DNA from: an uncultured bacterium
GTDB taxonomy: Bacteria; Patescibacteriota; Minisyncoccia; Phycocordibacterales; UBA9973
Length of the DNA: 64,000 bases
Direction of reading: 5' to 3'
Assembly (NCBI GenBank): GCA_937903035.1
Contig: CALCZP010000004.1
Span: forward strand, 181,506 to 245,505
Under the pieces are notes generated by a model. That model worked only from the letters and a program-made list of their open reading frames with translations, did no database searches and was not told the DNA's origin. This document shows, in pieces, positions 35,449 to 64,000 of the stretch. Each line of letters begins with the position of its first letter. Within the stretch, counting starts at the first letter, position 1. The translations under genes were made by a program, and so were the position numbers.

Positions 35449-38400
35449 TTAGCTGAGTGTAATAGCTTCTCCACCAATCGCAACACTAGTGGCACCCACG
35501 GTCTTTTTCAGTTCCTCACCAAAACTATCAACGACTGATTGATACTGAAATGGAAGTGTAAGAGTGATGATATCAGATGGTGCAAGACCTTTGTCTTTGC
35601 GCATGTCTTGGACCGTACGTACAAGCTCACGGTACTCACCTTCGAGTTTAAGTTGAAGTGTGATCGTTGTATCAAGCTTTGTTTCTTCACCTGCGATCAC
35701 TGACTTCACATTGAGTTCCTGCATCACAATCGCTGCGTATTGGTCGCTGAGATTCCAGTTTTTGACATACAGTGCCTGGAGTGGCTGACGGACTGCGATA
35801 CCCTCTTTTTTACGAAGTGCATTTCCTTGTGTACAAACCTCGCGCACGGTAGCCATATCTTTCAATAGCTCATCACTCACTGGCATTACTGCTGGCCAAG
35901 TACTCAAGTGCACACTCTCCTCGTTTGATAAGGACTTCAATTTCTGCCAGATATCTTCTGCTGCAAATGGTGCAAATGGTGCCATGAGCTGTGCGACTGT
36001 TTTGAGTACGCGGTAGAGTGTCGCTTTTGCGGCAACATCACCATCCTTGATGCGATCGCGACTCCGACGCACATACCAGGTCGAAAGGTCATCAATAAAG
36101 TCACGAAGTGCTCGTACCGGCTCAAGTAGCTTGTAGGTATCGAGACTTTCAGTCATCAGACTCGTGAGTTGATCGAGCCGAGTTGTAATCCATGCGTCGA
36201 GCACATTATCACCACTTGGATCTACCTCTTCTACGTTTGGATCTCGATAGAGGTCGTAGAATGAGAGCACATTGTAGAGCAATCCGAATACCTGACGTTG
36301 AAGCTCGACGACTGTTTTCTCATCATAGTTCTTGCTATCACCTGGCTGGTTGACTGAGTACATCCAGAGACGGAGTGTATCGACACCGTACTTCTCCATT
36401 TGCTCCCATGGGTTCACGATGTTGCCAATAGACTTACTCATTTTCTTACCTTGTGCATCAAGAAGATGTCCAAGACAAATGACGTTTTTGTATGCCTTGC
36501 CACGCCCAGTGAGCAAGCCAATCGCATGGAGTGTGTAGAACCATCCACGAGTCTGATCGATAGCTTCGGAGATAAAGTCAGCTGGATATGCAATCTCTCC
36601 ATCAAACGGATAATGATCCTGTGCAAACGGCATCGCTCCTGAGTCAAACCACACATCCATCACCTCTTTGGTGCGGCGATATTCCTTGCCATCTTTGACA
36701 AGCACTACATCATCGATGAACGGACGGTGGAGATCAAGCTCAAACTGCGCATTATGTGGAAGTGGTACAAAGTGAAGCGGACGGACTTCGGCATTACTGA
36801 AGTTCACATAGTCGCGCGTTTCTTCAAAGAGACGATCAAAGCTAATCCCTCGCGCTACAAGCTCAAGTGCGCGCGTTGATGCACCATGGGCAACGATCAA
36901 AATATTCTTGCCCTGGTAGCGAGATTCAATATCGTAGAGCGCCTCACCTGCACGCTTGATCACATCGGCATATGATTCACCATCAACAGTCTTGAACCCA
37001 TAGCGATCAGCTGCCTTGTTGCGCATTTCAAAGTATGACTCGATCGGCTTTCCTTCAAATGCACTACCCACATTCCACTCCCCGAGACGAGCATCGGTCA
37101 CGATAGCTTCGGCAGCTAATCCAAGCTTCTCAGCGACAATACGCGCTGTCTCTTGGGTACGAGCAAATGGTGACGCGATGATGAGATCGATCTGTTTGTC
37201 AGCGAGCGCAGTCGCACTTTGAATTGCCTGCTCTTTGCCACGAGTGGTGAGTGGATTTGTGGTTGCAGTATTCACATTCCAGTTCCCTGCAACGTTAAAC
37301 TCTGTCTCGCCATGCCGCATGACAAAGTACTTGTTGTTATTATGCTTGGCATATTTCTTGAGCATATCGATCGAGTCGACAACCATGCGGTCAGTATCTT
37401 CTGAAATCCAAATCGGAAGCGGTGTGCCCCAGTAGCGCTCGCGTGAGATCGCCCAGTCCTTGATACCGTCGAGCCATTCGCCAAAGCGCCCTTCTTTGAT
37501 ATGTGACGGCTCCCAGTTGATGCTTTCATTCTCAGCAACAAGTGTGTCACGAAGTTTCGACATAGCGATATACCATGAGTCACGCGCGTAGTAGATGAGC
37601 GCAGTTTTACAGCGCCAGCAGTGCGGGTATGAGTGTTCGTACTTTTCTTTCTTGAAGAGGAGTCCGCGATGTGCGAGGTCTTTGATGATGTCGACTGCGA
37701 CTTCTTCGTCTTTGACAAATCTTCCTTCAAGAAAATCAGTGCCTGCAATAAACTTTCCTTCGACATTCACCGTGTGGAATTTCGGAAGACCAACCTTGGT
37801 ACCAAGCTCAAAGTCCTCTGCACCATACATTGGTGCAATATGGACGATACCACTACCATCAGTCGTTGTGACAAAGTCAGCAGTATAGACCTTATACGCA
37901 TTGGTAAGTTTTTCTTTTTCTGTACCAGTGATCTGTGCGGCAAGGTATGGATAGAGTGGCTCATACTGCATATCCGCCAAATCTTCTCCAAAATCTCTTC
38001 GCACTTCTTCATAACCATCACCAACCAAATCTTTTTTATCTTCAGCAACAATTAAAATTTCATTCTCTTTTTTGAGCCAAAGATATGTAATATTAGCACC
38101 TACCGCCAGTGCAACATTCCCTGGCAATGTCCATGGTGTTGTTGTCCAAGCAACAATATAAACATTCTCAAAATCCTTAACTTTTGCCTTAAACTTTGCG
38201 TATACTGTCAGATCTTTATCATCCTGATATCCTTGCGCAAGCTCATGGGTCGCAAGTGTTGTTCCGCATCGCGCACACCATGGTGAGACTCGATAGTCCT
38301 TGTAGAGGAGACCCTGATCGTTGACCTTACCGACAATATTCCAGAGACTCTCCATATAGCGAGGATTGAACGTGTAGTACGCCTTGTCCTTGTCGACCCA

Positions 38401-38823
38401 GTAGCCAATACGATCGGTGAAATCTTCCCAGTCTTTAATATAGGTAAAGACGCTGTCCTTACATTCTTTGTTAAATTTTTCGATACCGTAGGCTTCGATG
38501 TCTTTTTTTGAAGCAAGTTCCAATTTCTTTTCGATCTGAAGCTCGACCGGAAGTCCGTGAGTATCCCATCCGGCACGGCGCGGTACATGGAAGCCCTGCA
38601 TGGTCTTGTAGCGAGGGATCACGTCCTTGAATGCACGTGCGAGCAAGTGATGAAGCGCTGGCTTTGCATTTGCTGTTGGCGGTCCTTCAAAAAAGACAAA
38701 CTCACCCTTGGTCGCAGGCTTCTCAAGTGTTTTTTTGAATATGTCATTATCGCGCCAAAAATCGAGCATTCGCTCTTCACGAAGTGCCGACTCGCTTTTC
38801 TGTTGGTTTGTTGATTCATTCAT
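35449..38823 (-). CDS. ileS: Isoleucyl-tRNA synthetase carrying an in-frame histidine-phosphatase (PGAM-like) domain insertion
   Basis: 1124 aa. IleS catalytic core, CP1 editing domain (AWTTTPWTLPGN), KMSKS (KMSKSIGN) and anticodon-binding region are all present. Between ISRERYWGTPLP and DVWFDSG there is an extra ~200 aa with RHGETEFN...LIVAHGASTRAL, the two catalytic-His motifs of the histidine phosphatase superfamily. The HIGH-position reads ALHH. Confidence 0.85.
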   Translation of the reverse strand: MNESTNQQKSESALREERMLDFWRDNDIFKKTLEKPATKGEFVFFEGPPTANAKPALHHLLARAFKDVIPRYKTMQGFHVPRRAGWDTHGLPVELQIEKKLELASKKDIEAYGIEKFNKECKDSVFTYIKDWEDFTDRIGYWVDKDKAYYTFNPRYMESLWNIVGKVNDQGLLYKDYRVSPWCARCGTTLATHELAQGYQDDKDLTVYAKFKAKVKDFENVYIVAWTTTPWTLPGNVALAVGANITYLWLKKENEILIVAEDKKDLVGDGYEEVRRDFGEDLADMQYEPLYPYLAAQITGTEKEKLTNAYKVYTADFVTTTDGSGIVHIAPMYGAEDFELGTKVGLPKFHTVNVEGKFIAGTDFLEGRFVKDEEVAVDIIKDLAHRGLLFKKEKYEHSYPHCWRCKTALIYYARDSWYIAMSKLRDTLVAENESINWEPSHIKEGRFGEWLDGIKDWAISRERYWGTPLPIWISEDTDRMVVDSIDMLKKYAKHNNNKYFVMRHGETEFNVAGNWNVNTATTNPLTTRGKEQAIQSATALADKQIDLIIASPFARTQETARIVAEKLGLAAEAIVTDARLGEWNVGSAFEGKPIESYFEMRNKAADRYGFKTVDGESYADVIKRAGEALYDIESRYQGKNILIVAHGASTRALELVARGISFDRLFEETRDYVNFSNAEVRPLHFVPLPHNAQFELDLHRPFIDDVVLVKDGKEYRRTKEVMDVWFDSGAMPFAQDHYPFDGEIAYPADFISEAIDQTRGWFYTLHAIGLLTGRGKAYKNVICLGHLLDAQGKKMSKSIGNIVNPWEQMEKYGVDTLRLWMYSVNQPGDSKNYDEKTVVELQRQVFGLLYNVLSFYDLYRDPNVEEVDPSGDNVLDAWITTRLDQLTSLMTESLDTYKLLEPVRALRDFIDDLSTWYVRRSRDRIKDGDVAAKATLYRVLKTVAQLMAPFAPFAAEDIWQKLKSLSNEESVHLSTWPAVMPVSDELLKDMATVREVCTQGNALRKKEGIAVRQPLQALYVKNWNLSDQYAAIVMQELNVKSVIAGEETKLDTTITLQLKLEGEYRELVRTVQDMRKDKGLAPSDIITLTLPFQYQSVVDSFGEELKKTVGATSVAIGGEAITLS

Positions 38824-46512: not shown

Positions 46513-47094
46513 ATGAACCAAGAAAAATCAAATAAGCAGTACGATACAATCATCGCTGACTGCAAAAAAGAATTCATTAAAAAAAACAAAAAATACGGAA
46601 ACAGTCTCGATAGCTATGACGCAATGGGTGTCCTTTCAAAAGTTTTTATCAAGCTGTATCGCATTGCCTCAATCCAGGAAGCTGGAGAATATAAAGTTGA
46701 AGGCGAACCTATTGAGAAAGAACTTCCCGGCATTATCAACTATTGTTTGTTTGGCATCACTGTCGCAAACCAAATAGCAAGCGGAATAAGAGTATGTTAT
46801 AGCAGCGATGCACTCTTTCAAGAGTATGACCAAGCAGCAGCATCTACGAGAAATTTATTTCAAAAGAAAAATCATGATTATGGTGAAGCATGGCGACAGC
46901 TCTCAATAAGCTATATGACACAGGAATGCCTGGTAAAGTATAATCGCATGCTTACGATGTACGCCGGATTAAAATTCAAGCCTGAGAATCGACAAGAACT
47001 TCAAAAAGAATTCATCGAAGTGTTCTCTGACATTTGCAACTACTGTATTTTTTGTTGTATTCGTATTTCAGAAGGCGCAAACGCTATGGTGTAG
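46513..47094 (+). CDS. DUF1599-like protein with two tandem repeats, each carrying a K-x-x-(D/K)YG..W motif
   Basis: 193 aa. KQYDTIIADCKKEFIKKNKKYGNSLDSYDAMG...IINY and again NLFQKKNHDYGEAWRQLSISYMT. This resembles the DUF1599 family, which is often found next to thymidylate synthase and folA genes. The region is AT-rich. Confidence 0.5.
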   Translation: MNQEKSNKQYDTIIADCKKEFIKKNKKYGNSLDSYDAMGVLSKVFIKLYRIASIQEAGEYKVEGEPIEKELPGIINYCLFGITVANQIASGIRVCYSSDALFQEYDQAAASTRNLFQKKNHDYGEAWRQLSISYMTQECLVKYNRMLTMYAGLKFKPENRQELQKEFIEVFSDICNYCIFCCIRISEGANAMV

Positions 47095-47097
47095 CAC

Positions 47098-47131
47098 AAA
47101 TTCCCGACCAGAGATTGGTCGGGAATTTTTA
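47098..47131 (+). terminator. Intrinsic terminator (or attenuator) between the DUF1599-like gene and thyX
   Basis: TTCCCGACCAGAGATTGGTCGGGAATTTTT. Confidence 0.6.
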
Positions 47132-47199: not shown

Positions 47200-48648
47200 A
47201 TGACTCAACAAAACGAAACATCTTCTAATGTCATCATTATCGATGGACTATCACCAGAAGAAGGGGCAATGTCCCAAGCCTTGTACTCCAGACGACCACA
47301 GAGCATTCTCAGCCATTTGGAACAAATATGGAAAAAAGGTGCTCAAGGTTTTATGGAAACATGGTACACAGGGTACGGACATAACAGTATTGGCGATTGT
47401 GGTTCAACAACGCTTTATTTTGAACATGTAAGCATGCTGGCCGCAAAAGCAATCCAAAACAATCCGCTCTACAACGGACAAGAAGCGAGTACTCGTTACT
47501 TGGATTTCGCCGGTAGAATGATGGTTAATCCCCTCGCGGGCTTACCAAATGCAAAGTATTTGTACATACCAAAAGAAAATTTGAATGCTGCATCTCTAAT
47601 TGATGCTCCATCATTTTTTTCAGAAAAGTACAAAAAGTTTGCAAACGAGTCCGCAAGCGAACAAGGAAAAATTATCCAAGAAACATGGATGGCATTTTAC
47701 GAAAAAAGCATGCCGATTGTTAAAAAATATGTTGCCGAACTCAATCCAAAAAGTGATGACCAAACAGATTCTCAGTATGACAAAGCTGTAAATGCCCGTG
47801 CATTTGATATCATGCGAGGATTTATCCCCGCAGGTATGACAACTCTTGTGAGCTGGCATAGCAATATCAGGCAGCTGCGTGATAACCTTGCAATCTTGAA
47901 GTACCACCCAAGTACTGAAGTTGCGCGAATTGCAATGACTGCACTTGCCGGACTCAAAGCAGTCTATCCAGCAAGCTTTGACAAAAAAGTGTATGACAAA
48001 ACTGAAGAGTATTATCAAATGCTTGCAGAAGAGTTTTCTTATACAGAATGGGCCCTTGAACCAGAATATATAAGCAAAGGCTTTGAAATCATCGGTAATT
48101 TTGATACTGAGATAATCAAAAAAGATTTTAGGAAAGTTCTTGAAAACAGACCAGAAAAAACAATCCCACCACATCAACTAGGTAGGGCTGGTGAGATAAA
48201 TGTTTCTTTCATGATTGACTTTGGTTCATTTCGTGATGCCCAACGCCACCGCAAGGGTGTATGCATGATGCCGCTTTTGACAACAAAGTATGGATTCCAT
48301 TCATGGTATCTCGAACGACTGCCACAAGAAGTTCGTATCGAAGCTGAAAAGCTTATCGCTGAAATGGATATACTTATCAATGCTCTTCCCTGCGCAGACG
48401 TTGAACGACAGTACTATATTCCAATGGGATATAAAGTTCCTGCAGATTTTACCTGGTCATTTGATCAATGTATCTATGTTGCAGAACTCCGCAGTGCGAC
48501 AACAGTTCATCCAACATTCCGTATTCACGCTCAAGCTTTGGGTAGATGGATTGAAGAAACAGTTCCTTACGCAAAACTCTATGTTGATTATTCAGAAGAC
48601 ACCTGGAGCTACAAACGAGGCTCACAAGACATCACTGAAAAACAGTAA
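47200..48648 (+). CDS. thyX: Tandem-duplicated FAD-dependent thymidylate synthase ThyX (pseudo-dimer); the first repeat lacks the RHR signature, the second keeps it
   Basis: 482 aa, roughly twice the ThyX length. Both halves contain the ThyX C-terminal block: WHSNIRQLRDNLAILKYHPSTEVARIAM and FTWSFDQCIYVAELRSATTVHPTFRIHAQALGRWI, matching the [24 protein letters not shown] block seen in Thermotoga ThyX. Half 2 has FRDAQRHRKG (RHR). At the equivalent position half 1 has AIQNNPLYNGQEASTRY (RHR replaced by NNP). Confidence 0.7.
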   Translation: MTQQNETSSNVIIIDGLSPEEGAMSQALYSRRPQSILSHLEQIWKKGAQGFMETWYTGYGHNSIGDCGSTTLYFEHVSMLAAKAIQNNPLYNGQEASTRYLDFAGRMMVNPLAGLPNAKYLYIPKENLNAASLIDAPSFFSEKYKKFANESASEQGKIIQETWMAFYEKSMPIVKKYVAELNPKSDDQTDSQYDKAVNARAFDIMRGFIPAGMTTLVSWHSNIRQLRDNLAILKYHPSTEVARIAMTALAGLKAVYPASFDKKVYDKTEEYYQMLAEEFSYTEWALEPEYISKGFEIIGNFDTEIIKKDFRKVLENRPEKTIPPHQLGRAGEINVSFMIDFGSFRDAQRHRKGVCMMPLLTTKYGFHSWYLERLPQEVRIEAEKLIAEMDILINALPCADVERQYYIPMGYKVPADFTWSFDQCIYVAELRSATTVHPTFRIHAQALGRWIEETVPYAKLYVDYSEDTWSYKRGSQDITEKQ

Positions 48649-48649
48649 A

Positions 48650-48677
48650 ACAACCCCGCACTAGTGCGGGGTTTTTA
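48650..48677. terminator. Bidirectional intrinsic terminator between thyX (+) and the NDT-like gene (-)
   Basis: AAAACAACCCCGCACTAGTGCGGGGTTTTT. Confidence 0.65.
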
Positions 48678-49163
48678 TTACTCATGAATGAATTCAGACT
48701 CTTCAATATTTTTCTGAACAATCTTAAGTTCTTCAAGAAAAAACGGGATAAGTTCCTCAATAGATTCTTTGTATCGAATAAAAGAAGTACTTCTTTTATT
48801 TACATCATACAAGGATGCACCTATGGGCAAGTGCGAAACCAGTGCATCCTTGTGGGCACACATCAGCACCCTGATACCATGCTTCTCTATTGACGTAGCA
48901 AGCTCCCACCCTAACCCGGTTGAAGGATACGATAACTCTCCAATCATGGCATGAGCATTACCAACGCATTCATGAATATCTGTGCAATATATTTCGTGCG
49001 AATCAGGCTGCTTTCCGTTTGATGCAGAATTTGCATTCCAAAAATCAAGCACCTCTATCCACTCAATGGAGCGAAGTTTGTTTTTAAATGATGCAATTTG
49101 ATCTTTGTATTCTTGTGGGGCATACGTTAATCCGCAGCCAACATACAGTTTTACAATTGTCAT
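48678..49163 (-). CDS. Nucleoside 2-deoxyribosyltransferase-like protein (NDT/DNPH1 fold)
   Basis: 161 aa. The N-terminus is VKLYVGCGLTY. STGLGWELATS matches the NDT catalytic motif DVGLGMELGYA with its Glu nucleophile. Confidence 0.6.
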   Translation of the reverse strand: MTIVKLYVGCGLTYAPQEYKDQIASFKNKLRSIEWIEVLDFWNANSASNGKQPDSHEIYCTDIHECVGNAHAMIGELSYPSTGLGWELATSIEKHGIRVLMCAHKDALVSHLPIGASLYDVNKRSTSFIRYKESIEELIPFFLEELKIVQKNIEESEFIHE

Positions 49164-49724: not shown

Positions 49725-50234
49725 ATGATAACAATACATGTTGTTCTTGGGAGAGAAAATCGTATTTATGGACTACCCTGGATTCCAAACCTTGCAGTAT
49801 CAGAAAAGCACTACATACGACAAACAAAAGGCAATGTAGTCATTCTTTCCTACAAAATGTGGGAGTTATTTAGTAAACAAGAAAAAATCTTTAATGAAGC
49901 AAAACCTGTATTTGTCTTTGGTAAAGGCAAAGTTCCTCTACCAGAACTTCCTAAAGATGCTTCGCATTTTGAAAACATTATCCATGCTATATCTCCCTAC
50001 TACGGACTCAAAAATACAGAAATTTTTGTTCTTGGTGGAACTGAATTTTTTGAATCATTGATCCGTGATAGTGCAGTAAAGCGAATCTTCATAACTCGAA
50101 TAGATGAAGATCTTGAATCTCCTATGACGTTTGATAAGGGTCTCCTTTCAAGCTTTAGGCAGTATTATGAAGATACATGGCGTGAAAGAACTAATGAAGT
50201 ATCTGCCGTAGAATTTCAGGTCTGGGCAAAGTAA
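49725..50234 (+). CDS. Dihydrofolate reductase-family protein (divergent)
   Basis: 169 aa aligning to DHFR blocks: RIYGLPW (IGxxNxxPW), VVILSYKMWELF (VIMGRKTWES), FVLGGTEFFESLI (VIGGGxxYExxL) and IFITRIDED (LYLTHID.E). The usual catalytic Asp position seems to be Asn, but the alignment is uncertain. Confidence 0.5.
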   Translation: MITIHVVLGRENRIYGLPWIPNLAVSEKHYIRQTKGNVVILSYKMWELFSKQEKIFNEAKPVFVFGKGKVPLPELPKDASHFENIIHAISPYYGLKNTEIFVLGGTEFFESLIRDSAVKRIFITRIDEDLESPMTFDKGLLSSFRQYYEDTWRERTNEVSAVEFQVWAK

Positions 50235-58559: not shown

Positions 58560-61500
58560 TTACTCCCCTTCACTTGGTGCAGGAGCAGATGCTTCGCCGC
58601 TTCCTTCATCAGCCGGAGCACTTTCACCACCTTCATCCACAGGAGGTGTTTCTTCACTTGGAGATGTCACCTCACCCCCTCCGTCATCTGCAGGTGGTGG
58701 TGTCTGTTCATCACCTGATCCATCATTACTACTTCCTCCACTTGCTCCCCCTGCATTTGCTGCACCATTTTGAAGGAGCTGCTGGAGCTGATCTTTGCTG
58801 ACACAGACCTGATCTTCATCAGTACCGACACAGAGCTCTTCAGTCGTGACTTTCTTGGTCTTTACACTGTCCACGAGTGCTTCGCCACGCTCTGCAATAC
58901 CCTGGAGGAAGGTCGCGACTTTCTCGGCAAAGGTCTGATCTTCAAATACTGGCAATGCCTGTACCTTTATATCCATCTCTTGAATAGCTTTAATCGTATA
59001 AGGGATAAATCCGCCATAACCAACTGACTTGAATCCAGTAAGTGGATCAGTCTTTACAAGCTCAGGAAAGAGCTGTTCCACTTCCTGTGCAATGAAGCCT
59101 CCATGCGCTGGATCACTATCATCCTCTTTATTCCAGTTGTAGGTTACAGCACGAAGCTGAAGAATACGACCAAGAATACCATCTTCAACGCTTACAATAT
59201 TTTTCTTAAGCCGCTCATCAGAACTACAACTAAGAACTGCATTATCTACATCAATATCACAATGACCGTTTTGGTTTTCAAATCGAGCAACAACACCATC
59301 AGTAAGACTTCCATCACCAACATCCAATGTAAAATTGGCACCCGTATTCATAATACCCAATTTAAAGCCTGACTGATAGTTAGGATCACCGATAAATGAC
59401 GAGTTACCTGCAGGGTTAGAATCGAATCTCATAAACGGATCCCCTCCTGAAGCACCTGCTATATTAAGCTCACTATTCGTTGCATTAATACCATAGGTGA
59501 ACGCATCACTTCCAAGATGGTCATAGAAATAAAATCCGTTATCTGACGTACCACCTCCAATATTAAGGATTCGCTGGTTGGTTGAAGGATTTCTAAAATC
59601 TATCTCTGCGGTTGAAGGGTTTGCCTCTACATAGAAAAATGCAGTGTTGCTTCCTGATTCCTTAAGTCTAAGGAAACTACTTGATGAAGAAGTGTTAGCA
59701 ACAAAGAAGTCAGTATTTATAGGACTTCTTATATTAAATGCAGAACCAGTCGAATACGCCTCCATTAACATCGATTGATATCCTGTTATTGGATTAGTGA
59801 GACTCATTATGGCCTGCCCGGAATCCCCTTCCAGATGGAAGAATTCATTACCAGTTATTTCAGTTGCAGTAATGATAGTATCACTACCAGTTCCATACAT
59901 TTTGAAAAGTTCATTACCCTGTCTTTGGAAAGAAATTGATGCAGTCGTTGAATTTCCATATCCGGTGAAATATGTATCACCATTTTGATCAGACACATTA
60001 AAAGATGATCCTGTTGTTGAGGCAGATATACCAAATGCCTGATTTCCATTCGATGGTTCGGAAATAGTAAATGAACTAAAATTTGTACCACCAACAGCAT
60101 TCAAGAAGTTGTTACCATCACGATTGGAAGCCGAGATATAGTTGGTAGTCGTATTTCCTGATGCACTAAACATGTCATTTCCTTGGTATCCACTAAGACT
60201 CATGCCCCAGTATGTTGAAGCACCATAGAGATTGAACAAACCGTCACCTGTTGCACTATTGGAAACACTTATCCCGCCATTTACAGAAAGTTGGTTACTA
60301 CCATTATTCCAGACAAAGTTTGAACTCGCGCCGAATGCACCAGAGTTGTTGAACTGAATCTGGGTATTTGATCCTGCAGGAGTTCCGCCACCACTGCCAA
60401 TGTTTGTCCATGAGCCAGCACTGTTCTTGTACTGCATGGTGCCACTATTGTCGCGGATACCGTATCCAGATGAACCAAGTGTGCCAGTGAAGTTCAAATA
60501 GCTATTAGAAGGGTTGAGTGCAAGACCATTTCCAGTGAATTGAGCATATTCAGTAGCAGCATCACCAAACGAGACCTTCCCAGCATTTGGATATTGTTTG
60601 ATCCATGAACGAAGCGTTGAAGGTGTGAGGAATGACGCATCAACCGAAACACCACGAACATAACTTGTACTTTGCCAGTCAGTACCAGTGCTTTCGCGAA
60701 CAAGAAAGTCATTGATCATGAAGCTATTGGTCTGACCATTACCAGTAACACGGTTGAGTGTTTTGTAATTTCCAGTAGTTCCTCCTAGGTTGCCATAGAC
60801 AGTATTTTGAACAGTTCCACTCACATATACTGGCTCATTTACGTTCAAGCCAGCACCGTTGCTTGTAAACTGACCTCCGGCAAACACATACTGTCCATCA
60901 CCATAATCATACGATGCGATAGAAGTACCATTATAGTCTTCATACAGACCAGTCTCATCACAGGTACCAACGCATCCATTACCGATAAATGCACGACCAC
61001 TACCACCACTACCCATGATAATACTGTCTGAGTAAATGGCCGAACTTGCATGAACGTTTCCATTCACATCAAGGTTATAGCCAGGCGCTGGTGTGCCAAT
61101 ACCAACCCTTCCATTAGTATCAATTCCCATTCGAAAAGTATTACCGGTACCAAACTGAAGACCTTTACTTCCAGTTGTAGTAATATATGCAGTTTCCCCA
61201 TTCATACCTCCTGAAATAAGTGCAGATGCGTATGCGGAACCACCGTATCCAATTTCCAAAGCACGACTCGAACTATTTTGATCATTATAGATCCGGAGGC
61301 TTCCATAACTTGATGATGTAGGAGCTCGCAAAATAATACTATTAGCATCACCAACAATTTCAAGTTTTGCACCTGGTGCTTTTGTACCAATACCGATACT
61401 ACCTGAACTTATGGTTGTTCCCGTACCGTCAAGACCCGTACCATAAATCAAGTTTCCAATACTAAGCTGATTTGATCCCGTTGCTGAAGCAACATATGCA

Positions 61501-64000
61501 GCCTGACCAATAGCGATATTCCCCGAACCTGAAGTGAGATTGTTTAATGTTGCAGGACCAATCGCAACATTGTTTGAACCTGTTGAAAGCGAAGTGAGTG
61601 TATTGTATCCAATACCAAGGTTGTAATTACCAGAAGTAAGCGATGGGACTGCGGCATCACCCACACCAACGTTACCAGTACCAGTACCTAATGATTGCAA
61701 TGCAGCAGCACCAACTGCAACGTTCCACTGTGCTGTAGTACTTGTTGAAAGCGCCGCATTACCCACCGCAACGTTGTCTGATCCGGTTAAATTTGATTGA
61801 AGCGCAAACACACCAATGGCAGTATTTGTCGCACCATCAGTATTTGAGATGAGTGCATTGTAGCCGAGTGCTGTATTTCCTTCAGATCCACCACTTACAT
61901 TAGTTTGTTGAGAGCCGATAATGAAGATGTCGTTAGAACCTGAATATGCAATTGCGTAGTCTTGGATATTAGTGAGTCCTCCACCATTACCATAATATGT
62001 ACCAACTGCATGTATATCTCCATTAACATCAAGAGTATATGACGGCATAGTACCAATACCGACCTTACCTGCAGTTGGCTGAAGGATGAGATTTTCCCAT
62101 GCAACACTTTGGTTTACTGCTTCAATGAAGCCAAAGTTGCTGGTCGTATTATATCCAATGTTGAGTTTATGGCTTGTACTACCTGTACCACGTATCGACA
62201 TTTGAGAAGCACTTCCGCTCGTATTATTAACCAGATTTCCTGCTATCTCAAATGTTCGTGTTGGACCAGTGGTACCAATACCAATACCTGAACCGTTGTC
62301 ATATATAAGACTATTACCAATCGCTGAACCACTTGTGAACTTTGGAATATAATTTGTTGTACCTAAAACACTTGCTGAAGTAAGGACAGGATTACCACCT
62401 ACATACAGATCACCGAAGTATCCAATGTTTGCATTAACTTCATTCCAGCGATACGTTGTAGTACCAAGACTGCCTCCAAAATCATTTGTCGGAACGATGT
62501 TACCGTTTGCTTGCAAGACACCTTCAAAGTTATCACTCGTACTGCTAAGGAGCACGTTTCCTGTATTACCTTTGATATGGAGACGATCCACAAAGCCACC
62601 GATATCAGGCTGCATCACATTGATTGCAAAGTCACCAAAGCGGCCATATTGATCGTAGTTTGGATCTTGAATCGTACCGTCAAGGCGCACGACCTCAATA
62701 TCATTGTTATCAATATCAGCACTCTTAAAGAGAATCGATGCACCAGAGTTGTCACTGTTTGAACTGTTGTCATCACTGCGACGTGTAAGGGTGAGCATTG
62801 TGGTTGGATCACTATAGTTACTATTCACCTGATCAGCCATTAATGACTTGGTTCTGAGGTTACCATTCATATCAAGCTCAAGGAGATTTGCCGGTGCAGA
62901 CCATCCACCAATACGAAATACGTTGTCATAATCAAGCCCCATATTGATTGCAAATGCGCCCCCTCGATGGAATGACATAAACGCTGGTCCTGTGTCATTT
63001 GAATATGCTTGCAACGATGGTGTATCACTTGCATTGAGACTGACAACACCTTTATTACTGTAAAAATGAGTAGCACCATTCACATCTCCACCACTAAGCG
63101 GCAAGTATGAACCGAGTGATGAAGCGGTTGCGAAGTATGACGTGTCATGACCATCAAGCAGATCAGCATCAAGCAAACTTCCTGACCCATCATTACCCTG
63201 TGTCCAAATATTGCTACCGTTTGCAGTAACTGATGTTCCGTACAAATCAAGGTTTGTAATCGTAAATCCTGAACGAGTGACGTTCATAAAGCTATTTGCA
63301 TTACTATATGCATCATTAATAGCACGGAATTGTAATGTCTTGCCGGTTGCATTTTGCTCGATATCCCATCGCTTCTCATTGGTTCCACCACTTGATGCAT
63401 TGGTACTCAAAAGTCTGATTACATTTGCACCATTTTCGACAATACCACCGTAGTCGCTAACATTAACATTCACACTTGATCCAAAGGTAGTTATACCTGA
63501 GGTATCAATCGTTACCCGCGCAACACCACCAGTAACAAGAGAAAGTGGGCTTGCATTTTGTGTTCCTATAATACCTAAATATCCAACGGTTGGGTTGAGA
63601 TAGAGTCGTGCAGTATTCGATGCACCAAGAGCATTAATCGTCACAACAGGCTCGACATCAGTAAATGTTGCATAGGTTGCACTGAGTGATCCACTAAACA
63701 CACCATCTCCTGATCCACCATAGAGTGCTATCTTTTGTGTTCCAGATGCATTATTAACCTGGACGACCCCCTCATTACTCGCATTTGCATACACATTGTA
63801 AATAATATTGCCTGCTGATTGGTTGAGAATATACTGACCAGTTCCATTTGTTGCAGCAACTGTTCTAATTGAACCACTTGAAACTATTGCTCCATTGTTA
63901 TCAACATACAATTTATCAGTACCACTTTTTGCAAGTTGTAATAGATTACCTGAACCAGTTGTGGTCGCGTATATAACTGGTGTGTTGTTTGAAGTAGATA
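58560..64000 (-). CDS. Giant (>1800 aa, 5' end outside the window) surface-fibre / phage-tail-fibre-like protein with a C-terminal Peptidase_S74 intramolecular-chaperone autoprotease domain and an acidic Pro-rich tail
   Basis: The ORF stays open to the window edge. It has repeated (V/I)GIGT..P....L(D/E)V.G motifs typical of tail-fibre/beta-helix repeats. The C-terminus reads LSCSSDERLKKNIVSVEDGILGRILQLRAVTYNWN...GGFIAQEV, matching the SDxRLKxNI...YNW signature of the endosialidase/tail-spike chaperone domain. Confidence 0.7.
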   Translation of the reverse strand, partial: STSNNTPVIYATTTGSGNLLQLAKSGTDKLYVDNNGAIVSSGSIRTVAATNGTGQYILNQSAGNIIYNVYANASNEGVVQVNNASGTQKIALYGGSGDGVFSGSLSATYATFTDVEPVVTINALGASNTARLYLNPTVGYLGIIGTQNASPLSLVTGGVARVTIDTSGITTFGSSVNVNVSDYGGIVENGANVIRLLSTNASSGGTNEKRWDIEQNATGKTLQFRAINDAYSNANSFMNVTRSGFTITNLDLYGTSVTANGSNIWTQGNDGSGSLLDADLLDGHDTSYFATASSLGSYLPLSGGDVNGATHFYSNKGVVSLNASDTPSLQAYSNDTGPAFMSFHRGGAFAINMGLDYDNVFRIGGWSAPANLLELDMNGNLRTKSLMADQVNSNYSDPTTMLTLTRRSDDNSSNSDNSGASILFKSADIDNNDIEVVRLDGTIQDPNYDQYGRFGDFAINVMQPDIGGFVDRLHIKGNTGNVLLSSTSDNFEGVLQANGNIVPTNDFGGSLGTTTYRWNEVNANIGYFGDLYVGGNPVLTSASVLGTTNYIPKFTSGSAIGNSLIYDNGSGIGIGTTGPTRTFEIAGNLVNNTSGSASQMSIRGTGSTSHKLNIGYNTTSNFGFIEAVNQSVAWENLILQPTAGKVGIGTMPSYTLDVNGDIHAVGTYYGNGGGLTNIQDYAIAYSGSNDIFIIGSQQTNVSGGSEGNTALGYNALISNTDGATNTAIGVFALQSNLTGSDNVAVGNAALSTSTTAQWNVAVGAAALQSLGTGTGNVGVGDAAVPSLTSGNYNLGIGYNTLTSLSTGSNNVAIGPATLNNLTSGSGNIAIGQAAYVASATGSNQLSIGNLIYGTGLDGTGTTISSGSIGIGTKAPGAKLEIVGDANSIILRAPTSSSYGSLRIYNDQNSSSRALEIGYGGSAYASALISGGMNGETAYITTTGSKGLQFGTGNTFRMGIDTNGRVGIGTPAPGYNLDVNGNVHASSAIYSDSIIMGSGGSGRAFIGNGCVGTCDETGLYEDYNGTSIASYDYGDGQYVFAGGQFTSNGAGLNVNEPVYVSGTVQNTVYGNLGGTTGNYKTLNRVTGNGQTNSFMINDFLVRESTGTDWQSTSYVRGVSVDASFLTPSTLRSWIKQYPNAGKVSFGDAATEYAQFTGNGLALNPSNSYLNFTGTLGSSGYGIRDNSGTMQYKNSAGSWTNIGSGGGTPAGSNTQIQFNNSGAFGASSNFVWNNGSNQLSVNGGISVSNSATGDGLFNLYGASTYWGMSLSGYQGNDMFSASGNTTTNYISASNRDGNNFLNAVGGTNFSSFTISEPSNGNQAFGISASTTGSSFNVSDQNGDTYFTGYGNSTTASISFQRQGNELFKMYGTGSDTIITATEITGNEFFHLEGDSGQAIMSLTNPITGYQSMLMEAYSTGSAFNIRSPINTDFFVANTSSSSSFLRLKESGSNTAFFYVEANPSTAEIDFRNPSTNQRILNIGGGTSDNGFYFYDHLGSDAFTYGINATNSELNIAGASGGDPFMRFDSNPAGNSSFIGDPNYQSGFKLGIMNTGANFTLDVGDGSLTDGVVARFENQNGHCDIDVDNAVLSCSSDERLKKNIVSVEDGILGRILQLRAVTYNWNKEDDSDPAHGGFIAQEVEQLFPELVKTDPLTGFKSVGYGGFIPYTIKAIQEMDIKVQALPVFEDQTFAEKVATFLQGIAERGEALVDSVKTKKVTTEELCVGTDEDQVCVSKDQLQQLLQNGAANAGGASGGSSNDGSGDEQTPPPADDGGGEVTSPSEETPPVDEGGESAPADEGSGEASAPAPSEGE

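Follow-up and report, generated by a model that had tools for sequence, protein, structure and literature searches.

A double-length ThyX-like protein of Patescibacteria with two predicted ThyX folds and complementary active-site residues in its halves

The stretch of DNA analysed here, called the window in the following, comprises 64,000 nucleotides from an uncultured bacterium of the Patescibacteriota (NCBI GenBank assembly GCA_937903035.1, contig CALCZP010000004.1, positions 181,506 to 245,505 of the forward strand). On its plus strand, the list of open reading frames (ORFs) gives a complete ORF at 47200..48648 with an ATG start, which encodes what appears to be a fused two-domain ThyX-like protein of 482 amino acid residues, followed by a stop codon. 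Canonical ThyX, the flavin-dependent thymidylate synthase (FDTS), has 220–250 amino acid residues, and an earlier note made from the sequence alone was right that this ORF is about twice as long. It took the product for a tandem pseudo-dimer of ThyX with a degenerate first repeat. The question raised by this locus is how a chain of such length is built, and whether it could still form the active site of a thymidylate synthase. The results given below point to two ThyX folds in one chain, and we consider it probable (roughly 65%) that the protein is a functional FDTS, and that it came about when a ThyX gene was duplicated in tandem and the copies were fused, with subsequent complementary loss of residues.

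The count of Thy1 domains had been named beforehand as the result that could overturn this idea, and by count alone the claim of two ThyX units fails. The sole match to Pfam Thy1 (PF02511) in the whole protein covers residues 39-257 (42.8 bits versus a cutoff of 24.8, E 6e-11), that is, within the N-terminal half (N-half, residues 1-262, 47200..47985, +). The N-half is joined to ThyX by profile comparisons as well: its family profile matches the PDB ThyX chains of Mycobacterium tuberculosis and Corynebacterium glutamicum with E 0.003, and in an hhalign comparison with a Thermotoga maritima-type ThyX profile, 165 columns were aligned with E 1e-3 (the TM0449 sequence used has 100% identity to the ThyX chain of T. 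maritima in PDB). For the C-terminal half (C-half), residues 265-482 scanned alone against Pfam gave no match even at E<=10, and a profile of 20 C-halves searched against all PDB sequences returned no ThyX and a single chance match. Similarity between the N-half and the C-half was not found by BLASTP, and hhalign of the half-profiles (48 family members) gave nothing significant in either global or local mode. The alignment of each half to known ThyX, which had been proposed as a check, thus succeeded for the N-half with M. tuberculosis ThyX and the T. maritima-type profile, but not for the C-half, whose hhalign comparison with the same profile was not significant (E 0.084, probability 0.7%). 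This non-significant alignment is collinear over 119 columns, and it places RHR onto RHR and E-L-R431 onto L-R174 of T. maritima.

The second ThyX unit was seen at the level of predicted structure. The AlphaFold2 model of the full-length protein (482 amino acid residues) has a predicted local distance difference test score (pLDDT) of 89.7 and a predicted template modelling score of 0.90, and one succession of strands and helices is repeated in it, from strand E8-15 to helix H239-255 and again from strand E295-301 to helix H438-454. Its Foldseek matches in PDB are ThyX or the ThyX-like PolB and nothing else. When residues 281-482 (48040..48645, +) were modelled alone, the pLDDT was 87.9, and Foldseek against PDB gave 148 matches at E<=1e-3, the best 50 of which are all ThyX (PBCV-1, T. 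maritima and Thermus thermophilus); the top matches have a probability of 1.00 and template modelling (TM) scores of 0.5–0.63, with about 200 of 202 columns aligned at 12–14% identity. Over the Foldseek alignments of the full-length and C-half models, the identity to solved structures is 12–16%. The AlphaFold monomer, another of the checks proposed, therefore gave a ThyX fold in both halves. On these models the C-half is a ThyX fold diverged beyond detection by sequence profiles, and the ORF is predicted to hold two ThyX folds despite its single Pfam domain, so that the tandem pseudo-dimer of the earlier note holds through structure prediction only. The two domains would be connected by a linker (residues 263-280, 47986..48039, +), which is partly helical in the AlphaFold2 model (H266-279) and variable in the family alignment. 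In addition, an insertion of about 39 amino acid residues follows the substrate-binding loop of the N-half (residues 112-150, 47533..47649, +); according to the family alignment it is confined to the ORF product and its closest relatives (57–65% identity), and it is modelled in part as strands E117-123 and E141-144.

A single Pfam Thy1 domain and halves without detectable sequence similarity would also be found if an assembly or frameshift error had joined two neighbouring genes, or a pseudogene to a gene, or if the likeness of the C-half to ThyX were due to chance. This explanation is extremely improbable. The identical ORF occurs on 6 independent contigs (public metagenome contigs, the longest of 405 kb, encoding a protein 100% identical to the ORF product), and a scan of species-representative genomes found full-length collinear relatives in at least 583 species-level genomes, besides those in completely sequenced isolated phages. 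Moreover, the C-half profile collected 1398 clusters at 50% identity, and the C-half keeps its position at about 240-480 in every full-length protein. A chance likeness is opposed by the 148 matches of the C-half model to ThyX chains in PDB, since the top 50 hold nothing else. An assembly or frameshift error is effectively refuted by the independent contigs and the collinear homologues.

The active-site residues were mapped through the alignment of the N-half to PDB ThyX and the hhalign alignments of both halves to the T. maritima-type profile, and their conservation was tallied in 187 unique family sequences. In the N-half, H61-N62-S63 (47380..47388, +) aligns with the GH-x-S motif (H53/T55 in T. 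maritima, S71 in M. tuberculosis), and H61 and S63 are each present in 186 of the 187 sequences. The loop binding deoxyuridine monophosphate (dUMP) is found at Q94-E-A-S97-T-R99-Y100 (47479..47499, +), aligned with N85-E86-L-S88-G-R90-Y91 of T. maritima, in which E95, S97, R99 and Y100 pair with E86, S88, R90 and Y91; Q94, E95, S97 and R99 are invariant (187/187), and Y100 occurs in 184/187. By hhalign, D203-I-M-R206 (47806..47817, +) holds the equivalents of T. maritima E144 and R147, and N222-I-R224 (47863..47871, +) those of N163/R165 (R190 in M. tuberculosis). D203, R206 and R224 are found in all 187 sequences and K83 in 186–187 of them. The N-half lacks RHR and an R174 equivalent: N87-N88-P89 (47458..47466, +) stands in place of RHR in the alignments, where the family has mostly D-W-P with no R or H among the residues tallied, and the R174 position is occupied by L233 in the alignment to the T. 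maritima-type profile.

RHR is present in the C-half only, as R349-H350-R351 (48244-48252) within DFGSFRDAQRHRKG, and the earlier observation of RHR in the second half with NNP at the first-half position is confirmed. It belongs to the segment D340-FGSF-R345-D-A-Q-R349-H350-R351 (48217..48252, +), which would hold both the RHR flavin/dUMP motif, paired with R78-H79-R80 of T. maritima, and the equivalent of T. maritima R74 (R345). R431, in E-L-R-S (48490..48492, +), corresponds by the non-significant collinear hhalign alignment to the uracil-binding R174 of T. maritima and R199 of M. tuberculosis. D340, R345, D346, R349, R351 and R431 are invariant (187/187), while position 350 has H in 159 of the 187 sequences and Q in the other 28; among the mapped catalytic residues, H350 and N222 are the exceptions to invariance or near-invariance. 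In its alignment to the T. maritima-type profile, the C-half has no GH-x-S motif, no S..S-x-R-Y loop, no R147 equivalent (Q404 stands at this position) and no N-x-R. Furthermore, PHROG 36506, a phage 'thymidylate synthase' profile of 491 positions, matches both halves collinearly, with the C-half at profile positions 344-471.

As far as sequence comparison goes, the loss of active-site residues is reciprocal, each half keeping a different and complementary set. The ThyX motif RHRxxSxxxxSxR is contiguous in neither half: RHR lies in the C-half, S-x-R-Y in the N-half. At this motif the N-half reads N87-N-P-L-Y-N-G-Q-E-A-S97-T-R99, and the C-half reads R349-H-R-K-G-V-C-M-M-P-L-L-T. The uracil-binding Arg (R431) and the N222/R224 that bind flavin adenine dinucleotide (FAD) are both present, on different halves, the alignment of the C-half being not significant. 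The C-terminal ThyX block that had been read in both halves is thus borne out in part: the N-half has N222-x-R224, but L233 at the position of R174, and the C-half has L430-R431 (L173-R174 in T. maritima), but no N-x-R. The 'HAQ' of the second half did not hold, as the family consensus does not keep its H, which also does not correspond to T. maritima H178-A-Q in the non-significant hhalign alignment. With residues lost on both sides, and with Pfam recognising the N-half alone, the first half is not simply degenerate, and it is misleading to call it so, because it is the more canonical of the two by sequence. Every residue of the FAD/dUMP site given in a review of the field (PMC6514825) is found somewhere in the chain, with Lys (K83) for Arg at the position of T. 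maritima R74. Most of the conserved catalytic residues persist in the homologues from Vibrio and Microcystis phages, in which the dUMP loop is conserved and the RHR motif and R431 are invariant.

Canonical ThyX forms a homotetramer of 222 symmetry, whose four active sites lie at three-subunit interfaces and use the subunits (A;B;C), (B;A;D), (C;D;A) and (D;C;B). In M. tuberculosis ThyX, each active site is built by three subunits (PMC6514825): subunit A contributes RHR 95-97 and R199, which contact the FAD phosphates, ribityl and isoalloxazine as well as dUMP, subunit B contributes S71 and R190, which contact FAD, and subunit C contributes R87, S105, R107 and the Y108 lid, which contact dUMP. 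When this scheme (PMC6514825) is mapped onto our alignments, the residues of the A role are found in the C-half only and those of the B and C roles in the N-half only. From this partition we infer a dimeric assembly, a count of two sites and the chemistry of the fused protein, as follows. A ThyX gene would have been duplicated in tandem, and the copies would have been fused and would then have lost complementary active-site sets. The C-half would give the set of subunit A, namely R349-H350-R351 (for the FAD phosphates, ribityl, isoalloxazine and dUMP) and R431 (for uracil), and the N-half would give both the set of subunit B (S63 and R224, for FAD) and that of subunit C (K83, S97, R99 and the Y100 lid, for dUMP). 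Two chains would form a C2 homodimer that is a pseudo-tetramer (pseudo-222), in which the pair of C-halves and the pair of N-halves share one two-fold axis; it would have two complete and two vestigial sites, each complete site being made of one C-half and both N-halves. If the C-halves take the places of A and D and the N-halves those of B and C, sites 1 and 4 would be complete and sites 2 and 3 would be without RHR and R174, and the only surviving symmetry would be the two-fold that exchanges A for D and B for C, which matches a homodimer of the fused chain. It had been suggested that an asymmetric fusion would halve the number of competent sites; this is plausible and fits the residue map, with the A role in the C-half and the B and C roles in the N-half. 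Such an enzyme would convert dUMP to deoxythymidine monophosphate (dTMP) with methylenetetrahydrofolate (CH2-THF), FAD and NAD(P)H.

It could also be supposed that catalysis in the usual sense is left to a single half, the other being a structural or regulatory pseudo-enzyme domain, and that the protein works in a larger assembly (such as an eight-domain tetramer of fusions) or with a separate canonical ThyX as its partner and does not form the two-site pseudo-tetramer. This would agree with the absence of the full contiguous RHRxxSxxxxSxR from both halves and with the invariant C-half residues R345, D346, H437, R441, W369 and Y370, which have no assigned role. We regard it as quite unlikely, since neither half alone holds a complete catalytic set and a single half could thus not be catalytic in the usual sense, while the retained sets are exactly complementary and their sum is one full site. 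Moreover, conservation is strong in both halves and of similar extent, across bacteria of the candidate phyla radiation (CPR) as well as phages, and a canonical thyX as partner was not found in the window.

Several points weigh against the fused thymidylate synthase that we favour. No sequence method tried ties the C-half to ThyX, and the residue equivalences of the C-half are taken from the non-significant collinear alignment together with the predicted fold. TIGR02170, the NCBIfam equivalog for thyX, reaches only 13.9 bits (E 0.03), where its cutoff is 87.9. K83 puts a Lys in place of Arg at the position of T. maritima R74 in the N-half; this position acts in the C role in canonical ThyX, whereas R345 sits in the C-half, and R345 and D346 are invariant there, yet without a role in the two-site model. 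In the homologues from Vibrio phages, R224 is not conserved. Finally, the genes for serine hydroxymethyltransferase (SHMT), dCTP deaminase, MazG and the kinase that accompany the family elsewhere are absent from the 64-kb window. In its favour, tblastn with Escherichia coli ThyA and T. maritima ThyX found neither thyA nor a canonical thyX within the window, to which this search was confined, and a DHFR-like (dihydrofolate reductase-like) gene and NDK lie nearby.

The gene neighbourhood was compared by clustering the neighbouring ORFs, 5 kb on either side, in 80 CPR loci, which were inspected out of the at least 583 and all come from metagenome-assembled genomes. A P-loop nucleotide kinase (AAA_17/18, weak DNMK) is found in 63 of the 80 loci, SHMT in 22, dCTP deaminase in 13 (11 of them within 300 bp), MazG in 11 and dihydrofolate reductase (DHFR) in 7. 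Conserved synteny was seen with L11 (32/80), NusG (31/80) and ArgRS (15/80). The kinase (loci L004-L083) has about 190 amino acid residues, often occurs in two copies and gives a weak match to deoxynucleotide monophosphate kinase. Between them, the recurrent neighbours produce dUMP, renew CH2-THF and add phosphate to dTMP. In addition, one relative of 625 amino acid residues (P0086, from a Logan contig) carries a dCMP/cytidine deaminase domain (PF00383, PF14437) fused at the N-terminus of the two-domain ThyX. Considering these neighbours of nucleotide metabolism and the dCMP deaminase fusion, dTMP synthesis is the most likely function of the family, which public pipelines annotate as FAD-dependent thymidylate synthase.

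The same evidence bears on a different reading, in which the protein is derived from ThyX but has changed its chemistry or substrate, for example to a PolB-type UMP/dUMP methylase, to the modification of dCMP/CMP or to making a hypermodified pyrimidine; CPR bacteria and large phages would then employ it in the modification of nucleotides or DNA and not for the bulk supply of dTMP. It would agree with the 12–16% identity to solved structures, with the TIGR02170 score far under its cutoff and with the UMP/dUMP methylase PolB among the structural matches, as well as with the full-length homologues in jumbo Vibrio phages and Microcystis phages and the DUF1599 gene ('nucleotide modification associated domain 1') upstream in the window. 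However, the residues that hold uracil and the phosphate of dUMP in ThyX (S97, R99, Y100, R349 and R431) are all retained, invariant or nearly so, the neighbours elsewhere (SHMT, dCTP deaminase, MazG, DHFR and the nucleotide kinase, with one dCMP deaminase fusion) belong to the dTMP pathway, and the presence in at least 583 species-level genomes is consistent with a housekeeping role. DUF1599 adjoins the fused gene in only 2 of the 80 other loci, and in the window a hairpin lies between the two genes. A changed chemistry is thus unlikely, and the diverged deoxynucleotide-modifying enzyme that the earlier note had offered as a possibility is disfavoured by the kept uracil- and phosphate-binding residues and by the neighbours. 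It is rather doubtful, too, that the fused scaffold is not, or not only, a dTMP synthase, with reciprocal loss having created a new asymmetric site for another flavin/folate-dependent pyrimidine modification or another substrate (dCMP, UMP or nucleic acid) and with DUF1599 as a possible partner.

In the window itself, the DUF1599 gene lies directly upstream of the thyX-like gene (46513..47094, +; two repeats, Pfam PF07659 with E 7.6e-24, PHROG 1485), and a terminator-like hairpin with a 14-bp stem followed by a T run lies between the two (47098..47128, +; a consensus match from a pattern scan). As a conserved partner of the fused ThyX, DUF1599 was rejected on its count in the 80 loci. About 1 kb downstream there is a DHFR-like gene for 169 amino acid residues (49725..50234, +; Pfam DHFR_1 with 27.6 bits versus a cutoff of 25, PHROG 316), which is a possible functional partner in folate cycling; the cycle of ThyX itself needs no DHFR. 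NDK and ArgRS genes are found upstream of the thyX-like gene. A convergent gene for 161 amino acid residues (48678-49163, -) shows weak similarity to nucleoside 2-deoxyribosyltransferase (E 0.044) and had no match among PDB sequences and none in PHROG; between it and the thyX-like gene, the pattern scan found a bidirectional terminator-like hairpin (48652..48673, both strands). Two further ORFs of the window were noted. One at 35449-38823 (-) encodes an isoleucyl-tRNA-synthetase-like product of 1124 amino acid residues, in which His_Phos_1 (PF00300) lies between two tRNA-synt_1 matches and could be an inserted domain. The other, at 58560-63911 (-), is very large and runs off the window, and its product on the parent contig has 3457 amino acid residues with Peptidase_S74.

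The architecture had been called unusual, but it is no peculiarity of a single genome and belongs to a large family in CPR bacteria. A protein search yielded at least 2749 relatives at E<=1e-3 among 8000 candidates, and the best 120 are nearly all of 420–500 amino acid residues and cover almost the whole query. The specific labels among the 80 inspected loci are mostly CPR/Patescibacteria lineages (Paceibacteria, Gracilibacteria, Peregrinibacteria, Saccharibacteria, Falkowbacteria, Uhrbacteria, Komeilibacteria, Taylorbacteria and Nomurabacteria), and the fused form is apparently the ThyX-type protein that CPR/Patescibacteria usually have. Many automated bins with a CPR-type gene (L006, L008, L009 and others) are titled 'uncultured Gammaproteobacteria' or 'Bdellovibrionales', which are probably placeholder or wrong taxonomy. 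Full-length homologues with 23–33% identity also occur in the isolated Vibrio phages vB_VmeM-Yong and BONAISHI and the Microcystis phage Mvi-JY20, and a protein of 491 amino acid residues from Microcystis phage LMM01 was a structural match. Furthermore, 55 IMG/VR contigs (L086-L140), many of them of 100–360 kb, carry full-length relatives with 24–42% identity; they may be huge phages or CPR fragments filed as viral. A split form with a stand-alone C-half was looked for and rejected, the short matches examined being contig-end fragments (L143) or a deletion variant (L142). The latter, on a Logan contig of 1.9 kb, has the C-half and an N-terminal remnant of 26 residues in another frame, and is probably a deletion or pseudogene and not a genuine split form.

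Among the closest known proteins are double-length ones of phages. The proteins of PHROG 36506, LMM01 (491 amino acid residues), Mvi-JY20, BONAISHI (ORF269) and vB_VmeM-Yong are collinear with ours over both halves and have the same partition of motifs, with GH-x-S, QE-x-STRY and FD..R in the N-half and D-x-G..RD..RHR and LR(S/T)G..H in the C-half, and a BFVD model of the Yong-type phage protein superposes over the full length with TM scores of 0.71–0.75. They differ in that they share only 23–33% identity with ours, do not conserve K83 and R224, and stand in a phage and not a cellular genome context; their annotations read 'hypothetical' or 'thymidilate synthase-like', and functional work on double-length ThyX-like proteins of phages was not found. 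PolB, the UMP/dUMP methylase of polyoxin biosynthesis (4P5A, 4P5B), shares the ThyX fold, and the full-length model matched it in the structure search (E 6e-3 to 7e-2), more weakly than true ThyX; it is a single-domain homotetramer from a nucleoside-antibiotic biosynthesis cluster, with loops that accept UMP, unlike the fused ThyX, whose gene context is one of dTMP metabolism and bears no likeness to such a cluster. The ThyX of Chlamydia trachomatis (CT632), an active FDTS of about 530 amino acid residues, some twice the canonical length, that has been used in inhibitor screens, may share the fused architecture. The C. trachomatis enzyme is mentioned in the literature (PMC3498832, PMC6514825), and the chlamydial ThyX was omitted from earlier phylogenies as lacking sequence identity (PMC6171736); no chlamydial sequence was among the listed matches of our protein searches. 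Neither a solved two-domain ThyX structure among the PDB matches listed nor a description of a fused or duplicated ThyX in the literature searched, which included PMC10733785, PMC6514825, PMC6171736, PMC3498832 and PMC5954106 and among them the field reviews of 2018 and 2019, was found. The gene is an ordinary member of a large and routinely annotated family, whose architecture and implied half-of-sites design appear to be undescribed. Domain searches see one Thy1 domain and about 220 'unknown' residues, and annotation pipelines therefore miss the architecture.

In comparison with canonical ThyX/FDTS (PF02511, EC 2.1.1.148; T. maritima TM0449 1O26, M. tuberculosis 2AF6/3GWC, PBCV-1 A674R 2CFA), the same fold is predicted for both halves of our protein, and the genomic association with SHMT and dUMP-producing enzymes is likewise seen in the fused family. 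The difference is that the fused protein has double length with two non-identical ThyX-fold domains as modelled, that the R174 equivalent is in the C-half only and that of N163/R165 in the N-half only, and that two active sites per four domains are predicted, not four. CPR/Patescibacteria make up a very large share of bacterial diversity and have a minimal nucleotide metabolism, and phylogenies or structure-based inhibitor designs built on the assumption of a homotetramer would not apply to the fused family. ThyX is a drug target, and its well-studied active site is built from three identical subunits. Leduc et al. in 2004 (PNAS) are said to have found that activity returns when two inactive ThyX mutants form heteromers. 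If the proposed partition is true, a single chain with one side of the site on each half would be a natural counterpart to such subunit-mixing experiments, and the fused ThyX would offer a defined asymmetric system for questions on the roles of the subunits.

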